Part shown: piece by piece, positions 1,279-10,607 of the stretch
How the letters are laid out: every line of letters begins with the position of its first letter
How positions within the stretch are numbered: the first letter of the stretch is position 1
Assembly: GCA_048885865.1 (NCBI GenBank)
Contig: JBHLLF010000074.1
Coordinates: 1 to 10,607 of the forward strand
Source of the DNA: Candidatus Hermodarchaeota archaeon
Lineage (GTDB): Archaea; Asgardarchaeota; Thorarchaeia; Thorarchaeales; Thorarchaeaceae
Direction of reading: 5' to 3'
DNA length: 10,607 bases
Made by a program: the position numbers and the translations under genes
Notes under the pieces: generated by a model
Told to the model about the DNA's origin: nothing
The model's database searches: none
The model's input: only the letters and a program-made list of their open reading frames with translations

Positions 1279-1326
1279 CTGGGTAGTTAGCCGCTGTGCC
1301 TCATTGCACAACCTCTGGTGACAGCT

Positions 1327-2511
1327 GTGAAACGAAGATCAAGAAATGCCATTATTGTTGTGTTAGCTGTTGCTTTTGTCCTCGTGTTGGCATCTCAGTC
1401 TATAGTTGCATTTACGACTGACCAGGGAACCTGTAATGATCCATTATGCCACACTACTGCAACTGCAATAGCCGTAAGCACAGATGCGTCGGTGGACGTT
1501 AACGAAGGAGAGCAATTCTCATTCGTGGTTCGAGCAACTGCAACTGCAGGACCAACCACTTTGGTACTAAAGCTCCCACTTGACCTTCAGGATAATGCGC
1601 TATTTAATGTGCCAGGTGATGGATTGGTACGTGACGGTGATGCGGCCGACCTAGATCCAGACGCTCTTGAGCTCGAAGTAAATTATACGCTAACAGCGCC
1701 TAGTTTATCAGGCTCCTATGTTCTCGAGATATGGGCTGCTGGGAATGGCGGTCATGCAGACATGACGTCAATCACTGTCAATGTTCTCCATGTGGGTGAG
1801 GGGCCTGCGTTCTCTAGCTTTAGCCAAATTCCTGCCGCACCCTTTGACAATGAAAGTGTCTTGGTTTCGGTGAACATTAGCTCCGAAGCGGGCATTGCTT
1901 CAGCTGTACTTCAATATCGTGTCAACACTACGATAGAATGGACCAATGTCACCATGAATCTAGTTGGTGGATTCTACCAGGCAACGATTCCAAGATTCCC
2001 TCCAGGTACGACAATTGAATATCGAATCGTCGCAAGGGATGGAAACGGAATTGAAGTTGTCACCGACCCGCCTCTGAAGTACACTGTGCGGGCCATACCA
2101 CCTATTCAGATGCACTACGGCTTCTACTTGGGTGCTCCTGCACTAATACTTGCGTACCTGGGCACCGCGCTTGAGTACTATGACGAGGAAAGATTCACCA
2201 GAATACATGGCTTTATGTTAACATTGGCATACTTCTTGACTTTGATCAATGTACTCTGGCTGTTTCAGGAGGATCCAGGGGCTTGGACAGCATTGAACCC
2301 ATCATACCTGATTAATCCTGCAGAGCTAATGCTCTTTATTCACTCCTGGCATATTTGGCTCGGAATAATCAGTATGATTCTTGGAACACTAGCCATCATC
2401 ACCCACATCGCAGGGTGGAAAACATGTAATCTCGGCCTACCAGCAGTATTGATGTGGACAATACTTGGGCTGACAGGATTTTACCTAAACGCAGTTGGAT
2501 TCTTGATGTGA
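1327..2511 (+). CDS. Exported CX4CH-motif (putative heme c) Reeler-like + Ig-like protein with C-terminal His-rich 4-TM cytochrome b-like domain
   Basis: GGTGA SD at 1317-1321 favours GTG 1327 over 1318. Signal peptide MKRRSRNAIIVVLAVAFVLVLASQSIVA. CNDPLCH at 1432-1452. Beta-rich domain ending TAPSLSGSYVLEIW. Ig-like domain at about 1801-2090 (YQATIP...IEYRIVARD). Four hydrophobic helices at 2113-2508 with His in MHYG, RIHGFM, IHSWHIWLG and THIAG. Five NxS/T sequons. Confidence 0.7.
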   Translation: MKRRSRNAIIVVLAVAFVLVLASQSIVAFTTDQGTCNDPLCHTTATAIAVSTDASVDVNEGEQFSFVVRATATAGPTTLVLKLPLDLQDNALFNVPGDGLVRDGDAADLDPDALELEVNYTLTAPSLSGSYVLEIWAAGNGGHADMTSITVNVLHVGEGPAFSSFSQIPAAPFDNESVLVSVNISSEAGIASAVLQYRVNTTIEWTNVTMNLVGGFYQATIPRFPPGTTIEYRIVARDGNGIEVVTDPPLKYTVRAIPPIQMHYGFYLGAPALILAYLGTALEYYDEERFTRIHGFMLTLAYFLTLINVLWLFQEDPGAWTALNPSYLINPAELMLFIHSWHIWLGIISMILGTLAIITHIAGWKTCNLGLPAVLMWTILGLTGFYLNAVGFLM

Positions 2512-2516
2512 TAACT

Positions 2517-3980
2517 ATGACTGAAGAACAAGTTGAACAAGTTGAAACAGTAACGCAAGATTACGAAGACGCAGTCATGAGAGACCTTGCGGCTGCTGTG
2601 AGTCGAGATAGAGTTTCGGACATGCTATTGGAGAGAATTGTATACAGCGGCGATCCAGCAGCACTTCCACAATTTCACTACAGATGGAAAGGAAAATACC
2701 TTGTCGATTATGTTGTGAGAGTTGAAAACATTGATGAGGTCAAGGAAGTCCTTGCGACTGCTGCGGGACATAACATTCCTGTCATTCCAAGAGGCGGGGC
2801 ATCAAGTTGCCTAGGTTCGTCAAGTCCTACGAGAGGCGGGATATCACTTGACATGAAACGAATGGATGCGATACTGGAAATCAACACCAAAGAAGGATAC
2901 GTGAGGATTGAACCAGGCGTTCCTTTTGAGAGGCTGGATATTGAACTCGCAAAGGTTGGCAAGACCATCGGGATATATCCTACTAGTGCGAAATCAGCTG
3001 TCATAGGAGGATGGATTGGCTGTGGAGGAGCGGCGGGTATAGGCACGCCCTACTATGGAGCCCTTAAAGACAACATCCTCGAAATAAAAGTAGTAAATCC
3101 AGATGGCGAGTTGGTGGAGGTCAGCGGAGATGACATCGATCTTTTCGTAGGTTCGTATGGCATACTTGGTGTCATTGTCGAAGTGAAAATGAAGATTCAC
3201 GACAAGCCTGAAGACTTCATCCCATTCAGCTATGGATTCGACCTATTGGAGAATTTGTGTAACGCAATGCGGCATATCTCTTCCATCGAAAGGAAACCCA
3301 TCCATCTGAAGATTGCAGACAAGGACTTCCAGAGCTATAGCAATGCTCTTGAAAAGGGCAATTACGTCTTGACCGTCGTATATCCGAATCAACCGGAAAA
3401 GGTACCAATTGATGACCTCAAAAGAGCAATTGCTGACAATGGAGGCATGGAACTTGGAGTTGAATATGCAGCTCATGAGTGGACTCTTCGTTATGACTGT
3501 GAATTCAATCCCAAGGAGCATTGTGACACACTGATGTTTCAAGAGGTTCTGATCGAAGTCGACAAGCTCTACGACTTGCTCAAGAAATATGAGGCGTACA
3601 AGAAGTCTCATAAAATCCCTGCAATCTGGTTTGCAATGTTGGGCAATCCCGGATGGGTGAGGGCTGAACTCATGGCAATGCTTAGTCCGGACCAGTATCT
3701 CAAATTCATTGCCAGCAAAGGCATCCTTCATAAAATGGTGAAGAAGGGCATTTCGCTAGGCGGAGGACCCTACACAATTGGCCTTCAAAATTCAATCTAT
3801 ATGAAGTATGCATATCCTCAGAGATTTGAAATGATGAAGACAGCAAAGGAAAAATGGGACCGGAACAATATCATGAATCCAGATCGGGTGACATCGTGCA
3901 TGACATCATTCTTCAGGATTAATGTGTTGTTTGCGATGGCAGCTGGAATAAGGCGGCTATCTAGATATGTGGGGAGATGA
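2517..3980 (+). CDS. FAD-binding oxidoreductase, GlcD/VAO-PCMH family, substrate unknown
   Basis: PCMH-type FAD-binding motifs: IPVIPRGGASS, ISLDMKRMD, VRIEPGV, YPTSAKSAVIGG, FVGSYGILGVI, C-terminal DRNNIMNP. ATG 2517 lies 5 nt after the upstream stop and avoids the 58-nt overlap implied by a start at 2454. Confidence 0.9.
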   Translation: MTEEQVEQVETVTQDYEDAVMRDLAAAVSRDRVSDMLLERIVYSGDPAALPQFHYRWKGKYLVDYVVRVENIDEVKEVLATAAGHNIPVIPRGGASSCLGSSSPTRGGISLDMKRMDAILEINTKEGYVRIEPGVPFERLDIELAKVGKTIGIYPTSAKSAVIGGWIGCGGAAGIGTPYYGALKDNILEIKVVNPDGELVEVSGDDIDLFVGSYGILGVIVEVKMKIHDKPEDFIPFSYGFDLLENLCNAMRHISSIERKPIHLKIADKDFQSYSNALEKGNYVLTVVYPNQPEKVPIDDLKRAIADNGGMELGVEYAAHEWTLRYDCEFNPKEHCDTLMFQEVLIEVDKLYDLLKKYEAYKKSHKIPAIWFAMLGNPGWVRAELMAMLSPDQYLKFIASKGILHKMVKKGISLGGGPYTIGLQNSIYMKYAYPQRFEMMKTAKEKWDRNNIMNPDRVTSCMTSFFRINVLFAMAAGIRRLSRYVGR

Positions 3981-3992: not shown

Positions 3993-5117
3993 ATGAGAGT
4001 TGACATTGAAAAGAAAGTAATGCGTCATTGTGGATCCTGTAATTACTGTCGCGATACATGCCCAATGTATATAGAATTGGGTTCCGAACTTGACAGTCCG
4101 GGAGGAAAAATCAGGGCACTCAGAGCGTACGGTGAAAAGATGAGAAAGCCACCTCAGGAGCTGCTTGAAAGGCTCTATTGCGCTGACTGCAGAAGGTGCG
4201 AAGCGATTTGTCCTGCGGGAGTGCCTGTGACACACATATGGCATGATGCCAAGGCGACTCTCCTCAATAGCGGGGGAGAAATGTCAGAGAGCCTATTGAA
4301 AGTGATTGATTGGCTTGACAAGGAAGGAACGCCGTTTATAGGATACGAATCCGATGATCGAACTATCTGGGCTGAAGACTTGGAGCTTCCTGAAAAATCA
4401 AACACAGCTATATTCAGCGGCTGCATGGGGAGCTTCTGGTTCCCAGACCAACCAGAGATGGTTGTAGACATGCTTCAGAAATTGAAGGTCGATGCAGGAT
4501 ATGTTCCCAGTGAGGTCTGTTGTGGGTTGATGTCCTACTGGGCAGGTGATGATGAAGGCTTCAAGAGAATTGCACAGCAGAACTATGAGATGTTCAAGAA
4601 GGCGGGGATTCAACACATAGTCACAGGATGTGGTGGTTGCTATGGAACATTGGCTGAACACTATGAGCATCTTGTTCCAGGATTTGATGTGGAGATCCAT
4701 CACACTGTTGATGTGCTAGCCGACATGGTTCGTAATGGTGTCCTGACCTTCAAGGGGAAGGAAGGCACCTACACATTCCATGACAGCTGCCATCTCGGTA
4801 GGGCGCTGGGTATCTATGAGCCCCCAAGAGAAATAATCAGAGCGATTCCAGATTTAGAATTCGTTGAGCTTCCAAACAATAGGGAGAACTCCAATTGCTG
4901 TGGAGGTTTCCTGACAGTTCTAGACCCGAATTTATCCGAATCCGTCGGTAAGAGAAGGGTTAATGAAGCCGTTGAGCTAGGTGTGGACGGAATGATTACT
5001 GAATGTGTATCATGTTTCAAGAACTTGAGCTACTGTGCACGTGAGACAGACCTCGAAGTCATTCAGCTCGATGAGGTAATTTTGGATCTTGCACAGTCAT
5101 CTCTAGTAGAGGAGTGA
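3993..5117 (+). CDS. Fe-S oxidoreductase, GlcF/HdrD-like (2x[4Fe-4S] plus two CCG domains)
   Basis: Ferredoxin motifs CGSCNYCRDTCP and CADCRRCEAICP. CCG domain 1: FSGC...VCCG...GCGGC. CCG domain 2: HDSCHLGR...NCCGG...ECVSC. Confidence 0.92.
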   Translation: MRVDIEKKVMRHCGSCNYCRDTCPMYIELGSELDSPGGKIRALRAYGEKMRKPPQELLERLYCADCRRCEAICPAGVPVTHIWHDAKATLLNSGGEMSESLLKVIDWLDKEGTPFIGYESDDRTIWAEDLELPEKSNTAIFSGCMGSFWFPDQPEMVVDMLQKLKVDAGYVPSEVCCGLMSYWAGDDEGFKRIAQQNYEMFKKAGIQHIVTGCGGCYGTLAEHYEHLVPGFDVEIHHTVDVLADMVRNGVLTFKGKEGTYTFHDSCHLGRALGIYEPPREIIRAIPDLEFVELPNNRENSNCCGGFLTVLDPNLSESVGKRRVNEAVELGVDGMITECVSCFKNLSYCARETDLEVIQLDEVILDLAQSSLVEE

Positions 5118-5124
5118 GAACTAA

Positions 5125-6456
5125 ATGAGTGAATCAAGAAAGGGGACCAGGGTTGTTGTTGTAGGCGCTGGCATAGCTGGATTCAGCTGTGCATTAGAGC
5201 TTAAAGGACTCAAGGCACGATGTACAATTCTGGAGAAAGAGAAGACTGTGGGTGGAAGAGCACGATCCTTCACCGAGTCGGGATATGTATTCGACCAAGG
5301 CCTCCACTTTTTCGTTGGTGGTTTCAAATCACTGATACCTATTCTCGAACGAAGCGGAATCAGGATGACCACTGTGGGAGAGGGAGCTGTCTGGCTCAAG
5401 GGTGGTGAAAGACATATTGTCCGGAAGTCAGCTGTGGACCTCGCCAAGTTTGGGCTATTGCCAGTGGCAGACAGGGCACGTCTCGGCTTGCTTGTTCAAG
5501 AGAGTATGAATCGTCCCGATGAAGAGTTCCTCGAACTCGATAAGATGACCTTCTCTCAATACGCAGAGGAGAAGGGCATAGCGGAGTCCATCCAGGAAGA
5601 CTTCTATGATCCACTGATTAGAACCGTGACCTTCATGCCTCCAGACGAGGTTTCTGCTGGCCAGTATCTATACTCTGAGAAGCAGAGGTTTGCATACGAG
5701 GATGGATTCAAGGCTATGTATCCGGAACGAGGAGGACTTGGAAGTGTCCCATATACTCTCATGCTTCAGGCACGCAATTTTGCGGTAGAGCCAAAGGTGA
5801 ACTGCACAGTAAAGCAAATCATCGTGGAAGACGGCAAGGTTCAAGGTGTCGATTATGAACAAGATGGCAAGGACCAGCATGTTGATGCCGATGCCGTTGT
5901 GGTGACTACCCCAATTGATCTTCTTCCAAATCTTGTGAACATGAGCAAACTCCCTGGTGATTTCGCTAAGGCAGTTGGCAAATTCAATTATGCTCCATCG
6001 ACCGTAGCCTACTTCGGGCTTTCTTCCCGTGTGCTTGATTTCAACGTTGGGGCCTTTGTCCCTGGTAAGAAAATCAACATTGTTGCAGAGGCTAAACGGG
6101 TTTCTGGGGTTCTTGCTCCTATTGGAGAATCACTCCTGACTGTCACCGGCATTGACAAAGAACTCCTCAAGATGAGCGATGAAGAGGCTACTGAGGAAAT
6201 CCTCAACGAATTAAAGGAACTCATACCAGGTATTGAAAAGAAAGTCACCTGGAAGAAGAGCTGGAAGATTTGGCGATCGGTCCTATCTCAGCCACCAGGC
6301 ATTCTTGAAGATCGACTCAAGACAAACAGGACAGGAGTCGAAGGGCTCTATGTTGCAGGATCATTTGCGAACTGTGGTATATACTATGCTAGCATGGAAG
6401 CAGCTTCGAAGTCTGGCATTGCCTGCGCAGGGGAAATGATTAAGGACCTTTCCTAG
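5125..6456 (+). CDS. FAD-dependent oxidoreductase, flavin amine-oxidase superfamily, phytoene/zeta-carotene desaturase- or HpnE-like
   Basis: Rossmann motif VVVVGAGIAG...LEKEKTVGGRARS. Also DQGLHFFVGGF, FYDPLIRTVTFMPPDEVSA, and C-terminal GLYVAGS...ASMEAASKSG. GAGGAGTGA SD at 5109-5117. Confidence 0.8.
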   Translation: MSESRKGTRVVVVGAGIAGFSCALELKGLKARCTILEKEKTVGGRARSFTESGYVFDQGLHFFVGGFKSLIPILERSGIRMTTVGEGAVWLKGGERHIVRKSAVDLAKFGLLPVADRARLGLLVQESMNRPDEEFLELDKMTFSQYAEEKGIAESIQEDFYDPLIRTVTFMPPDEVSAGQYLYSEKQRFAYEDGFKAMYPERGGLGSVPYTLMLQARNFAVEPKVNCTVKQIIVEDGKVQGVDYEQDGKDQHVDADAVVVTTPIDLLPNLVNMSKLPGDFAKAVGKFNYAPSTVAYFGLSSRVLDFNVGAFVPGKKINIVAEAKRVSGVLAPIGESLLTVTGIDKELLKMSDEEATEEILNELKELIPGIEKKVTWKKSWKIWRSVLSQPPGILEDRLKTNRTGVEGLYVAGSFANCGIYYASMEAASKSGIACAGEMIKDLS

Positions 6457-6558: not shown

Positions 6559-7758
6559 ATGACTAAACCAGGGCCGATTGAACAAAGCGGGCAGAAGAAT
6601 GACCCGTATGTTTGTGCATCTTGTGGTAACTGCACACTAGTATGTCCTGTCTTTCGCCAGATGAGATGGGAGCCGTACGGCCCGAGAGGAAAACTAAGCA
6701 TTACAAAATCAATTTTCGAAAAGGAAGCAGAGTTCAATCCAGACTTCACGAGGAAGCTCTTCCTCTGCACGCTGTGTGAACATTGCACAACGGTTTGTAC
6801 GACTAGCATCAGGCTCGATCGATTCTGGGAACTAATGCGTGAGGAAGCAAAAGAAAGAGGACTCACTCCACCTCCAGTCAAGTTTGCCAGCGAGTCTATA
6901 AAGAGAACTGGAGACCCATTCTCTATAGGCCGATCTAGCAGATTGCTCTGGGCAGAGGGCATGGAAGACATTGTCGAGTCAAGAATCAATGCAAAAGCAG
7001 ATGTCGCATTCTTTCTTGGGTGCAATGTATCACTCAAACACCAGCTCCATGACATCGCCAGGTCGATGATAAAAATCATGGAACATGCAGGTGTCGAATA
7101 CACACTTCTCGGAGAGAAGGAGTCATGTTGTGGAGCTCCTTTGCTTTGGGCCGGAGAACCTGAAGGAACTCCAACCATGGTTGAGAAGAATGCCCAAGCA
7201 CTTGCCGATTTAGGTGTAAGAAAAGTAGTATTTAGTTGTCCATCATGTGCCAGCACCTGGATTAGTTCGATGCACAAGAGTGCAGGGACTTCAGCTGTAA
7301 GGAAGATGGAACTCCTGACGGCTTCACAATTCATTAACCAGCTCATTCAGAAGGGAGCCCTTACATTCGATGAGCAACCTATGATAACTGCAACATATCA
7401 TGATCCCTGCATATCAGCCAGGGTTCTCGGCGTTTCAAAGGAACCCAGGAATGTGATAGAGAGAATTCCTGGAATCTATCGAGTTGAAATGGTTTCATCC
7501 GAGGAAGACACTAGGTGTTGCGGGTCGCACGCCCTGCTAAATATGATTGATCCGCACTTGTCTGCGCAAATAGCTGAGATGCGACTGAGGGATGCGTCTG
7601 TCACTCCAGCATCATTGCTTGTTACAGAATGCCCCCGATGTGAGATGGCATTCGACCTGGCTACAATTACTCTGGGCTACAGTGTCAAAATTCTGGACAT
7701 TACACAACTTGTTGCAAACTCACTGAGTTCAGGAGAAATGAAAGGAGATGGGCAGTAA
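6559..7758 (+). CDS. Fe-S oxidoreductase, GlcF/HdrD-like (2x[4Fe-4S] plus two CCG domains), second paralog
   Basis: Ferredoxin motifs CASCGNCTLVCP and CTLCEHCTTVC, plus PRGK. CCG domain 1: FLGC...SCCG...SCPSC. CCG domain 2: YHDPC...RCCG...ECPRC. Confidence 0.92.
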   Translation: MTKPGPIEQSGQKNDPYVCASCGNCTLVCPVFRQMRWEPYGPRGKLSITKSIFEKEAEFNPDFTRKLFLCTLCEHCTTVCTTSIRLDRFWELMREEAKERGLTPPPVKFASESIKRTGDPFSIGRSSRLLWAEGMEDIVESRINAKADVAFFLGCNVSLKHQLHDIARSMIKIMEHAGVEYTLLGEKESCCGAPLLWAGEPEGTPTMVEKNAQALADLGVRKVVFSCPSCASTWISSMHKSAGTSAVRKMELLTASQFINQLIQKGALTFDEQPMITATYHDPCISARVLGVSKEPRNVIERIPGIYRVEMVSSEEDTRCCGSHALLNMIDPHLSAQIAEMRLRDASVTPASLLVTECPRCEMAFDLATITLGYSVKILDITQLVANSLSSGEMKGDGQ

Positions 7759-9586: not shown

Positions 9587-9687
9587 CTTAAAATGAGCTT
9601 AGATGGTTCCGGATTGAAACCATGGCCTTGGCCAAGACCGAACGAACTCGAGATAGAGCCTTGTTCAGAACCTATGGAGACAACCAG

Positions 9688-10317
9688 ATGAAGAAGCAGC
9701 ATCGCAGAATGACCCTGGTTATAGCCACCCTGGTCATCTCAGTGTTTATCTTAGCGAGCAGTTCTTTTGCTTCACCGAATTTTGGAGCGACCTGCGGCGA
9801 TTCGCCTAGTTGCCACGTAAATGCGGGAACTACACTATCAGTAAATGCAACCGGAACAGTACAAGCTACTAGAGGAATCCCATTCCTGTTAGTAATAGAT
9901 GCAGGAGATGGTACAGAGGCAGTCAGCATGCAGAGTGGGGATGCTGACAACGCCGAGTTCACCATCTCAGTTGATGTCATTAGAGATGGCGACGCAGCTG
10001 ATACCAATGGAAACACAGGTGAGATTGATGCTTCAGTAACATTCACACCGCAGACTGTTGGATCCTATACCATTCGGATTTGGACAGGTGCTGCTGGTCG
10101 TATTGGAACTAGTGTCAGCGTGGATGTAGATGTTGCTGAGAATACTTTGACTACGACCAACGGAACAACGCCACCTACTACCACGCCTCCTCCAACTACA
10201 CTCACTCCTGAGGAGCTCATGGCTATCTGGGAGCTAATGATGTACACTATAACTCCTGCCTCCGCAGTGATACTTGCCCTGCTAGGGGTATTTGTATTCA
10301 GGAGGGCTCGTAACTAG
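9688..10317 (+). CDS. Exported, C-terminally anchored CX5CH-motif (putative heme c) Reeler-like surface protein
   Basis: GGAGA SD at 9676-9680 favours ATG 9688 over 9622. Signal peptide MKKQHRRMTLVIATLVISVFILASSSFA. CGDSPSCH at 9793-9816. Shares DNAxF, RDGDAAD and GSYxxxIW with the 1327 protein. Thr/Pro linker at 10144-10209, then a TM helix and basic tail RRARN. Confidence 0.75.
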   Translation: MKKQHRRMTLVIATLVISVFILASSSFASPNFGATCGDSPSCHVNAGTTLSVNATGTVQATRGIPFLLVIDAGDGTEAVSMQSGDADNAEFTISVDVIRDGDAADTNGNTGEIDASVTFTPQTVGSYTIRIWTGAAGRIGTSVSVDVDVAENTLTTTNGTTPPTTTPPPTTLTPEELMAIWELMMYTITPASAVILALLGVFVFRRARN

Positions 10318-10329
10318 AGGGTGGTCATC

Positions 10330-10607
10330 ATGGCACTACATCCAGTCTTTGTACACTTTCATACGGGCATTGGAGCAGCCACTGCGGTTATGGCGCTGAT
10401 CAACATTGTTTTCCGCCTCGTGTTTCGAGACGGTATTAGAACCCCTGGAACAAGGATGGCCAAGCTATTCCACGAGTTCGATATATTCATCTTTTGGGGG
10501 AATATCATCACTCTACTAGGCCTCTTCGTTGGGATGTGGTCAGGATTTGTCGATTGGCCGATGGTTGCGCTTGTAAACGATCCATATATGAGATTCAAGA
10601 TTCTCTG
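10330..10607 (+). CDS. 3'-truncated membrane protein, DUF2231-like
   Basis: Not in the ORF track because it runs off the window. Hand translation: MALHPVFVHFHTGIGAATAVMALINIVFRLVFRDGIRTPGTRMAKLFHEFDIFIFWGNIITLLGLFVGMWSGFVDWPMVALVNDPYMRFKIL... The LHPxxVHF start motif and two TM helices are visible. GAGGGTGG SD-like element from 10317. Confidence 0.75.
   Translation, partial: MALHPVFVHFHTGIGAATAVMALINIVFRLVFRDGIRTPGTRMAKLFHEFDIFIFWGNIITLLGLFVGMWSGFVDWPMVALVNDPYMRFKIL

Follow-up and report, generated by a model that had tools for sequence, protein, structure and literature searches.

A candidate membrane cytochrome subunit in a conserved flavin/iron-sulfur gene island of Thorarchaeota

In FRRS1/SDR2 and CYBDOM proteins, a beta-sandwich facing outwards (which carries heme in the case of DOMON) is joined to a bundle of transmembrane (TM) helices with His-ligated heme, and electrons are transferred across the membrane. 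The TM part of the b561 type has six helices, four of which, in succession, each provide one His as heme ligand, and the first three of these His alternate outer/inner/outer. Other combinations exist, such as CbcL from Geobacter, in which a b domain of the HydC/FdnI type is fused to an alpha-helical c domain with several hemes that feeds extracellular electron transfer, or cytochrome f, an all-beta c-type cytochrome with its CXXCH near the mature N-terminus, which is Tyr-Pro and whose alpha-amino group provides the sixth ligand. From the cytoplasmic side, CCG/[4Fe-4S] proteins dock on heme-b membrane modules in HdrDE and DsrMK, and modules of the NarI/HdrE type have five to six helices. For EtfD, the cryo-EM structure (PDB 9ojn; PMC13083937) places a [4Fe-4S] cluster, D4, about 7 Å from a bis-His heme b within a five-helix domain. 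The present analysis deals with a gene from a genome bin of Thorarchaeota (Asgard; 3.58 Mb in 117 contigs, 87% complete), lying in a stretch of 10,607 nucleotides (the window, i.e., contig C74) and encoding an exported double beta-sandwich followed by four TM helices. No paper describing its protein family, or the gene island in which it lies, was found in the literature.

Judging from its sequence, this protein (the target) probably serves a CCG-type dehydrogenase as membrane cytochrome subunit and combines two undescribed families. More specifically, by analogy with HdrDE, DsrMK and EtfD, in which a membrane module partners a CCG protein, the target can be read as the membrane subunit of the FAD_binding_4/CCG enzyme encoded next to it, and we give a probability of roughly 60% to its being a membrane-spanning electron-transfer subunit of a Thorarchaeota flavin/iron-sulfur (Fe-S) dehydrogenase in which heme b would be wired to an outer heme c. 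Four directly observed features lead to this reading, namely the architecture of the protein, its conservation, the order of the genes around it, and its linkage to and co-occurrence with the genes for cytochrome c maturation (Ccm).

The open reading frame (ORF; 1318..2511, forward strand) encodes 397 amino acids counted from its first GTG (1318), and the in-frame GTG at residue 4 (1327) is the start used by the database copies. An AlphaFold 2 (AF2) model of the 397-residue protein, built on 49 homologues and with a mean predicted local distance difference test score (pLDDT) of 82, comprises an N-terminal helix (residues 2-28), the C39-NDPL-C44-H45 motif within a loop of low confidence, a first beta domain (residues 51-157, its C-terminal end being ...YTLTAPSLSGSYVLEIWA), a second beta domain (164-256) and four TM helices (268-288, 290-315, 334-364 and 373-392). 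This agrees with an earlier sequence-only reading of the same DNA, which had proposed a signal peptide, a Cys/His motif at the mature N-terminus, two beta domains and four TM helices. A word-indexed search returned 135 homologues, every one of them labelled hypothetical, whose hosts, where named, are nearly all Thorarchaeota or Promethearchaeota, apart from isolated labels of Hodarchaeota and Odinarchaeota; the sequencing runs listed as containing the sequence are sediment-type metagenomes with no RNA run among them, which has no bearing on expression. Across the 49 aligned full-length homologues (identities of 42-84%), the residues C39, C44, H45, H266, H297, H342, H345 and H363 are invariant in all 49, and the loops YYDEERFT and GWKTCNLGLP are almost wholly so. 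The conservation of the family is far beyond chance, given that the TM domain is its best-conserved part (mean column identity of 71% in alignment A3). The five His of the TM domain, on whose conservation the sequence-only reading had made its proposal depend, are thus all retained, and the motifs that it had pointed out (HIWLG, IHGFM, and KTCNLG ahead of the last helix) are all present as described.

According to the alignment and the AF2 model, H266, just ahead of TM1, and H342/H345, two to three turns into TM3, lie at the outer face of the membrane, and H297, two turns into TM2, and H363, at the inner end of TM3, lie at the inner one. By helix, H266 belongs to TM1, H297 to TM2, and H342, H345 and H363 to TM3, with none on TM4; the doubt of the sequence-only reading about a fourth His of the b561 type was therefore justified, the last helix having no His. 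Nearly all relatives of the TM domain have H266, H297 and H345, about two thirds have H342, and H363 is kept in the subfamily of the target only. The modelled placement in the target fits one bis-His site near each face of the membrane, and most relatives would perhaps have the outer one only. Apart from a b561 alignment at chance level (see below), nothing in Pfam or NCBIfam matched the TM domain at E ≤ 1, and by these searches it forms a family of its own. Its fused form with domain 1 occurs in about 30 representatives of the domain-1 search list described below. A short-protein search with the TM region gave 16 matches, mostly contig-end fragments of full-length orthologues, and none of them was an informative stand-alone form; the TM-only paralogs were found through genome searches. 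The complex predicted for the TM domain, the CCG protein and two hemes scored 0.12 and 0.00, against a mark of 0.32, which is evidence neither way.

The gene order was counted in 33 Thorarchaeota loci. A FAD_binding_4 gene comes next after the target in 33/33 of them, it is followed by the Fer4/CCG gene in all 23 loci with room for it, and the order FAD, CCG, amine-oxidase-like, CCG, FAD-with-TM is kept in 19/19, with the stand-alone anchored domain-1 protein and the DUF2231-like membrane protein next in 17/19 (Table 1). The neighbours of the target score against models of the HdrD, GlcF, GlpC and DsrK types. Since the start of contig C66 (C66:4-297) continues the last ORF of the window, C74 and C66 are adjacent, and the island can be followed further: C66 carries a third and a fourth CCG + FAD_binding_4 pair, as well as a TM-only paralog of 137 amino acids, which keeps the equivalents of H266, H297, H342 and H345, has Gly in place of H363, and directly precedes another FAD_binding_4 + CCG pair. 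The membrane part thus always adjoins the flavin/Fe-S/CCG enzyme pair. The arrangement resembles that of EtfD, HdrE and DsrM, in which a His-bearing helical membrane module is encoded beside, or fused to, a protein with Fer4 and two CCG domains; the module of EtfD has five helices, whereas that of the target has four. Unlike HdrE, DsrM and EtfD, the target adds an exported heme-c-type domain outside, and a quinone site is not evident in it. Three of the four tested copies of the DUF2231-like protein match PF09990 with scores under the cut-off (E 3.3e-5 to 0.02), and hhalign gave a probability of 0.2% for the TM domain of the target against this family, so that no relationship between the two His-rich membrane families is detectable. 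From the fused target and the split pair at the end of the window, it follows that an outer domain-1 protein is paired twice with a His-rich membrane protein, once fused and once split. Likewise, since the second FAD_binding_4 protein has TM helices of its own and the one next to the target has none, the island has two ways of attaching a flavoenzyme to the membrane.

Table 1. Features of the target gene and of the genes that follow it in the window (residue numbers count from the GTG at 1318).
Feature	Position	Strand	Remarks
Whole gene: putative heme-c-type beta-sandwich, Ig-like (immunoglobulin-like) spacer and 4-TM His-rich domain	1327..2511	+	alternative GTG start 1318
Signal peptide or N-terminal anchor	1318..1407	+	residues 1-30; KRRSR n-region, hydrophobic helix, SIVA ahead of the mature part
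Domain 1, Ig/macroglobulin-like beta-sandwich of a choice-of-anchor-V-like superfamily	1408..1797	+	residues 31-160
C39-x4-C44-H45, putative covalent heme-c attachment site	1432..1452	+	invariant in 49/49 homologues
Domain 2, CBM56/fn3-like beta-sandwich with Asp-box	1798..2088	+	residues 161-257
4-TM domain	2089..2508	+	residues 258-397; H266, H297, H342/H345, H363
FAD_binding_4/GlcD-like flavoprotein	2454..3980	+	likely true start ATG 2517, directly past the stop of the target
Fer4 + 2x CCG iron-sulfur protein, HdrD/GlcF/GlpC-like	3993..5117	+	family-library match
Amine-oxidase/HpnE-like flavoprotein	5125..6456	+	family-library match
Second Fer4 + CCG protein	6559..7758	+	family-library match
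Second FAD_binding_4 protein, own C-terminal TM helices	7758..9464	+	family-library match
Stand-alone domain-1 paralog, C-x5-CH, Thr/Pro linker, C-terminal TM anchor	9622..10317	+	
DUF2231-like His-rich membrane protein, 5' part, HPVFVHFH motif	10321..10607	+	remainder on contig C66

The exported part of the target carries a motif of the CXXCH type, in the form C-x4-CH. Among 30 orthologues, the spacing between the two Cys is of two residues in 11, three in 3, four in 13 and five in 3. A profile of domain 1 (A2), made from 29 orthologues, 15 stand-alone paralogs and 2 other paralogs from the same genome, found 364 relatives at E ≤ 1e-3 (146 at E ≤ 1e-10) among 1.84 billion representative proteins. 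In 148 representatives taken from this search list, C-x(2-6)-CH appears in 92, at about positions 17-64, directly past the signal or anchor helix (C-x2-CH in 66, x4 in 22, x3 in 2 and x5 in 2), C-x1-CH in 16 and a single “CH” in 20, with no motif within the first 100 residues in the other 20; in 122 aligned relatives, only C44, H45, N93, F96 and P128 are nearly invariant (≥90%). The motif is probably a variable heme-c-type site, C-x(0-6)-CH, of which only the “CH” is universal. Some relatives are joined to further heme motifs: P0266 carries five CXXCH, P0283 four cytochrome-c-like repeats, and Paired_CXXCH_1 and Cytochrome_C7 each match two of the 122 relatives scanned. As for the body of the domain, both fold searches gave, among their best 50 matches, generic Ig/macroglobulin sandwiches, and profile searches of the PDB sequences with A2 and A3 gave nothing meaningful (the best E, 0.032, was to a designed protein). 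The closest sequence family is choice-of-anchor V (NF041895) together with NF041894 (the MXAN_6652 family): the target matches NF041894 with an E of 8e-4 over residues 23-151 (cut-off 200 bits) and NF041895 with 11.8 bits and an E of 0.18 (cut-off 42 bits), the latter model being matched by 24/122 relatives at E ≤ 0.01, with a best score of 32.2 bits (model positions 15-132 of 150). A choice-of-anchor V search of the own genome returned no candidates, in spite of the E of 0.18 in the direct hmmscan. As all the scores are below the cut-offs, domain 1 is better regarded as a distant relative of choice-of-anchor V than as a member of it. Both are exported domains at the N-terminus; what comes next is one of various anchors in choice-of-anchor V and, in the present case, the 4-TM domain or a simple TM anchor.

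The likeness to cytochrome f deserves a separate comment. It comprises the beta-sandwich body, the motif near the mature N-terminus and the A-x-P that forms the consensus past the hydrophobic core of the signal in the wider domain-1 family. If cleavage took place past the Ala, it would give Tyr/Phe/Trp-Pro N-termini, which could, speculatively, provide the sixth ligand that the domain otherwise lacks. The target itself differs, its own residues there being ...A|FTT, without Pro, and no cytochrome f was found among the best 50 matches of the sequence and fold searches. Compared with CbcL, the target would likewise fuse a TM domain of the b type to an exported c-type heme domain, although its putative c domain is a beta-sandwich with a single site and its TM family is undescribed. 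Domain 1 is also found at the head of other proteins, such as a 961-residue surface ORF in the same genome (domain-1 places at C37:22764-23237 and C10:25106-25579) and a 1224-residue protein with PKD/Big_13 repeats (L016:3010-6684), the latter located upstream of the island in some Thorarchaeota. Single relatives also match models of hydrogenase small subunits (VhuG/HydD/FrhG-like) or rhodanese/MoeB-like models, which hints at domain 1 as a reusable outer redox module.

Regarding the machinery that such a heme would need, the host genome encodes CcmA, CcmB, CcmC and CcmE on C66 (a cluster at about 9.5-12.6 kb along the contig, where CcmC is a CcmC-like protein) and a CcmF-like protein on C46; ResB was not found in this genome. 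CcmE (C66:12222-12602) ends in ...CPSKY, the Cys-type ending of the archaeal variant of System I, bacterial CcmE having the heme-binding His in that place. In five other genomes (G149, G140, G120, G087 and G137), CcmE lies on the same contig as the target, about 14-17 kb beyond it. Co-occurrence was assessed in 151 evenly drawn Asgard genomes: 17 of them carry the TM domain (9/27 in the family of the window, counting G000, 6/25 in family f9 and 2/2 in f24) and 20 have CcmE, and CcmE accompanies 13/17 carriers of the TM domain vs 7/134 non-carriers, or 9/9 carriers vs 1/18 non-carriers within the window's own family, in figures to be read bearing in mind that these genomes are kin and not independent samples. 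In two loci of family f9 (L050, G132:C88 4900-15074; L051, G109:C47), FAD_binding_4 and Fer4/CCG genes follow the gene for a 290-residue protein that consists of domain 1 and the 4-TM domain and lacks domain 2; this gene directly adjoins the genes for CcmF-like, CcmA, CcmB, CcmE and CcmC proteins, as well as for small domain-1 proteins. This linkage is the strongest argument for domain 1 being a Ccm client, i.e., a covalent heme protein. The domain-1 proteins beside these ccm genes have one Cys only (H-x2-3-CH), with a His 3-5 residues upstream in the place of the first Cys, which makes the domain-1 site unusually degenerate.

In the path that we infer, from the bound cofactors and the contacts between subunits to the substrate and the direction of the electrons, the cytoplasmic FAD_binding_4 protein would oxidise or reduce some substrate, and the [4Fe-4S]/CCG protein would hand electrons to a b heme near the inner face (H297 and H363), from which they would pass to a second b heme, close to the outer face (H266 with H345/H342). 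The next carrier would be a heme on the exported beta-sandwich, bound covalently to C44, usually together with the upstream Cys, and axially ligated by H45; the Ig-like domain 2 would keep this sandwich off the membrane. The final exchange would take place with surface cytochromes or external acceptors, or the flow would be the reverse, and two proteins with seven CXXCH each, encoded elsewhere in the genome, are possible surface acceptors. The role of domain 2 is probably that of a spacer. It is absent from most domain-1 relatives, its best fold and hidden Markov model (HMM) neighbours are CBM56/fn3, and its invariant residues (G162, L198, W208, M213, P225 and A239) include no His. The sequence-only reading had suggested that electrons are moved across the membrane to the surface, and this part of it fits both the conserved FAD/Fe-S/CCG island and the linkage to the Ccm genes.

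Several observations weigh against a dehydrogenase subunit with a b-to-c heme wire. No match in sequence or fold ties domain 1 or the TM domain to a known cytochrome. On the side of domain 1, the variable spacing of the motif and the single-Cys relatives are atypical for a c-type cytochrome (the upstream Cys is missing in 20/148 representatives and C-x1-CH is found in 16/148, and we know of no single-Cys or C-x1-CH forms among Ccm substrates), and no invariant Met or second His that could act as sixth ligand was found in the orthologues or in the 122 relatives. On the side of the membrane, the outer and inner His of TM3 are 18-21 residues apart, which is long, and the restriction of H363 to one subfamily, along with the partial presence of H342, leaves a lone inner His in most relatives, so that a wire with two b hemes may not be general. 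In 4/17 genomes with the TM domain, CcmE was not found at E ≤ 1e-5, and the two host ORFs with seven CXXCH each, one of them encoded beside CcmF on C46, need Ccm anyway.

These points have to be set against what the alternatives can explain. The sequence-only reading had compared the target with FRRS1/SDR2, as a prokaryotic analogue or relative. Actual homology, with Reeler, DOMON and cytochrome b561 domains, could account for the shared order of exported beta-sandwich, beta-sandwich and His-bearing TM bundle, and for the first three His alternating outer/inner/outer as in b561, but we give it hardly any credence. Nothing in Pfam or NCBIfam matched the target above the cut-offs, Reeler, DOMON, Cytochrom_B561 and DUF420 gave no match on it at E ≤ 1, and none of these four figures in the list of the 25 families with most hits in the 49 orthologues. 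Domain 1 does not bear out the Reeler assignment: Reeler (PF02014, cut-off 21 bits) had no match in the whole genome at E ≤ 10 or in 18 domain-1 relatives at E ≤ 1, and is not among the 25 families most hit by the 122 relatives (E ≤ 0.01); C..CH is a heme-c-type motif and not the Reeler hallmark; and the best 50 matches of either fold search contained no Reeler structure and no cytochrome f, by which neither is excluded. In favour of Reeler is a cluster of Bacteroidota proteins among the Atlas (language-model) neighbours of domain 1 (score 0.85), 27% of whose members carry PF02014, which is a lead only. Domain 2 is not a DOMON (PF03351), as it lacks an invariant His; in addition, it had no such match at E ≤ 1, resembles CBM56/fn3 with an Asp-box and is missing from most relatives. 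With regard to the TM domain, the b561 model (PF03188, cut-off 23 bits) aligned at C74:2101-2403, over model positions 3-89, with a chance-level score of 10.1 bits (E 1.63), and there are four helices instead of six, the last without His. What stands of the comparison is the analogy, which the FAD/Fe-S/CCG island and the Ccm linkage favour, and not the kinship to Reeler, DOMON or b561. The target shares with FRRS1/CYBDOM the plan of an outer beta-sandwich on a His-bearing TM bundle, but homology is undetectable, its outer heme would be covalent and of c type instead of b type, and it has four helices, with the neighbouring FAD/Fe-S enzyme as proposed donor, instead of six helices and ascorbate. 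It would be a functional analogue rather than a demonstrated relative, and the likeness is best read as convergence.

Two further alternatives keep the architecture and change the chemistry. In one of them there would be no heme at all, the Cys-His site binding Cu or Fe or acting as a redox or persulfide thiol, and the 4-TM domain being an anchor, a quinone site or a metal site with three His (H266, H342 and H345). The irregularities of the motif described above notwithstanding, we consider this unlikely, for it fails to explain the linkage to and co-occurrence with Ccm in two Asgard families, the CXXCH directly past the export signals in 66/148 representatives and the fusions to true cytochrome c domains. 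In the other, the target would be an accessory of Ccm itself, with a His-lined TM domain exporting heme and an apocytochrome-like domain as substitute for CcmH. Heme is passed outwards through a His-lined TM domain by CcsBA and CcmF; archaeal System I is not known to have a CcmH, and DUF420 is the CtaM heme-insertion family. The linked Ccm genes (including the CcmF-like gene directly beside the fused gene in L050), the conserved His at both faces of the membrane and the Atlas neighbour closest to the TM domain, a DUF420 cluster (score 0.75 only; 40% of its members with DUF420), are in line with such a role. The DUF420/CtaM model (PF04238, cut-off 30.5 bits), however, has no match on the target, so that the DUF420-like domain considered in the sequence-only reading was not recovered. 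The TM domain, fused or alone, always stands directly before FAD_binding_4 and CCG genes (33/33 loci and the TM-only paralog), an arrangement typical of membrane subunits of dehydrogenases, there are several paralogous modules per genome, and domain 1 heads many unrelated surface proteins; a role in maturation is thus very improbable.

A more far-reaching version of that reading is possible, and we put it forward only tentatively: domain 1 would be a new all-beta class of c-type cytochrome, whose heme would be attached through one Cys by a System I with the archaeal Cys-type CcmE, with the N-terminal amino group as a possible sixth ligand; combined with a 4-TM cytochrome b of an undescribed family, it would make up a transmembrane wire of three hemes by which Thorarchaeota would respire to or from the surface.

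Some genes around the island can be mentioned in addition. Upstream of the target (1-681 and 682-1170), the window contains two flavoproteins of the PNPOx/F420 type (PPOX class), the first with an N-terminal hydrophobic extension. As such a pair stands directly ahead of the target in 9/33 loci (L012-L018, L021 and L022), it does not belong to the core of the island. Between the island and the ccm cluster, C66:6389-9606 encodes a UbiA-type prenyltransferase (with an N-run inside), a polyprenyl synthase and a geranylgeranyl-reductase-like flavoprotein, named from their translations alone, and these genes could supply a quinone-like or phenazine-like membrane carrier for the island.

No closer relatives of eukaryotes are known than the Asgard archaea, among which the Thorarchaeota have mostly been described as fermentative. 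An island with several flavin/Fe-S pairs, two undescribed His-rich membrane families, heme-c-type domains and Ccm genes of its own points to electron transfer that is bound to the membrane and possibly extracellular. It also offers two candidate families of cofactor-binding proteins: a beta-sandwich whose C-x(0-6)-CH site is degenerate, which would widen the known substrate range of System I, and a 4-TM partner of CCG proteins. The convergence with FRRS1/CYBDOM makes the protein interesting with regard to the construction of transmembrane heme wires and, if the three-heme wire were true, Thorarchaeota would carry out surface respiration by means of a device on the plan of the eukaryotic CYBDOM/FRRS1 proteins.

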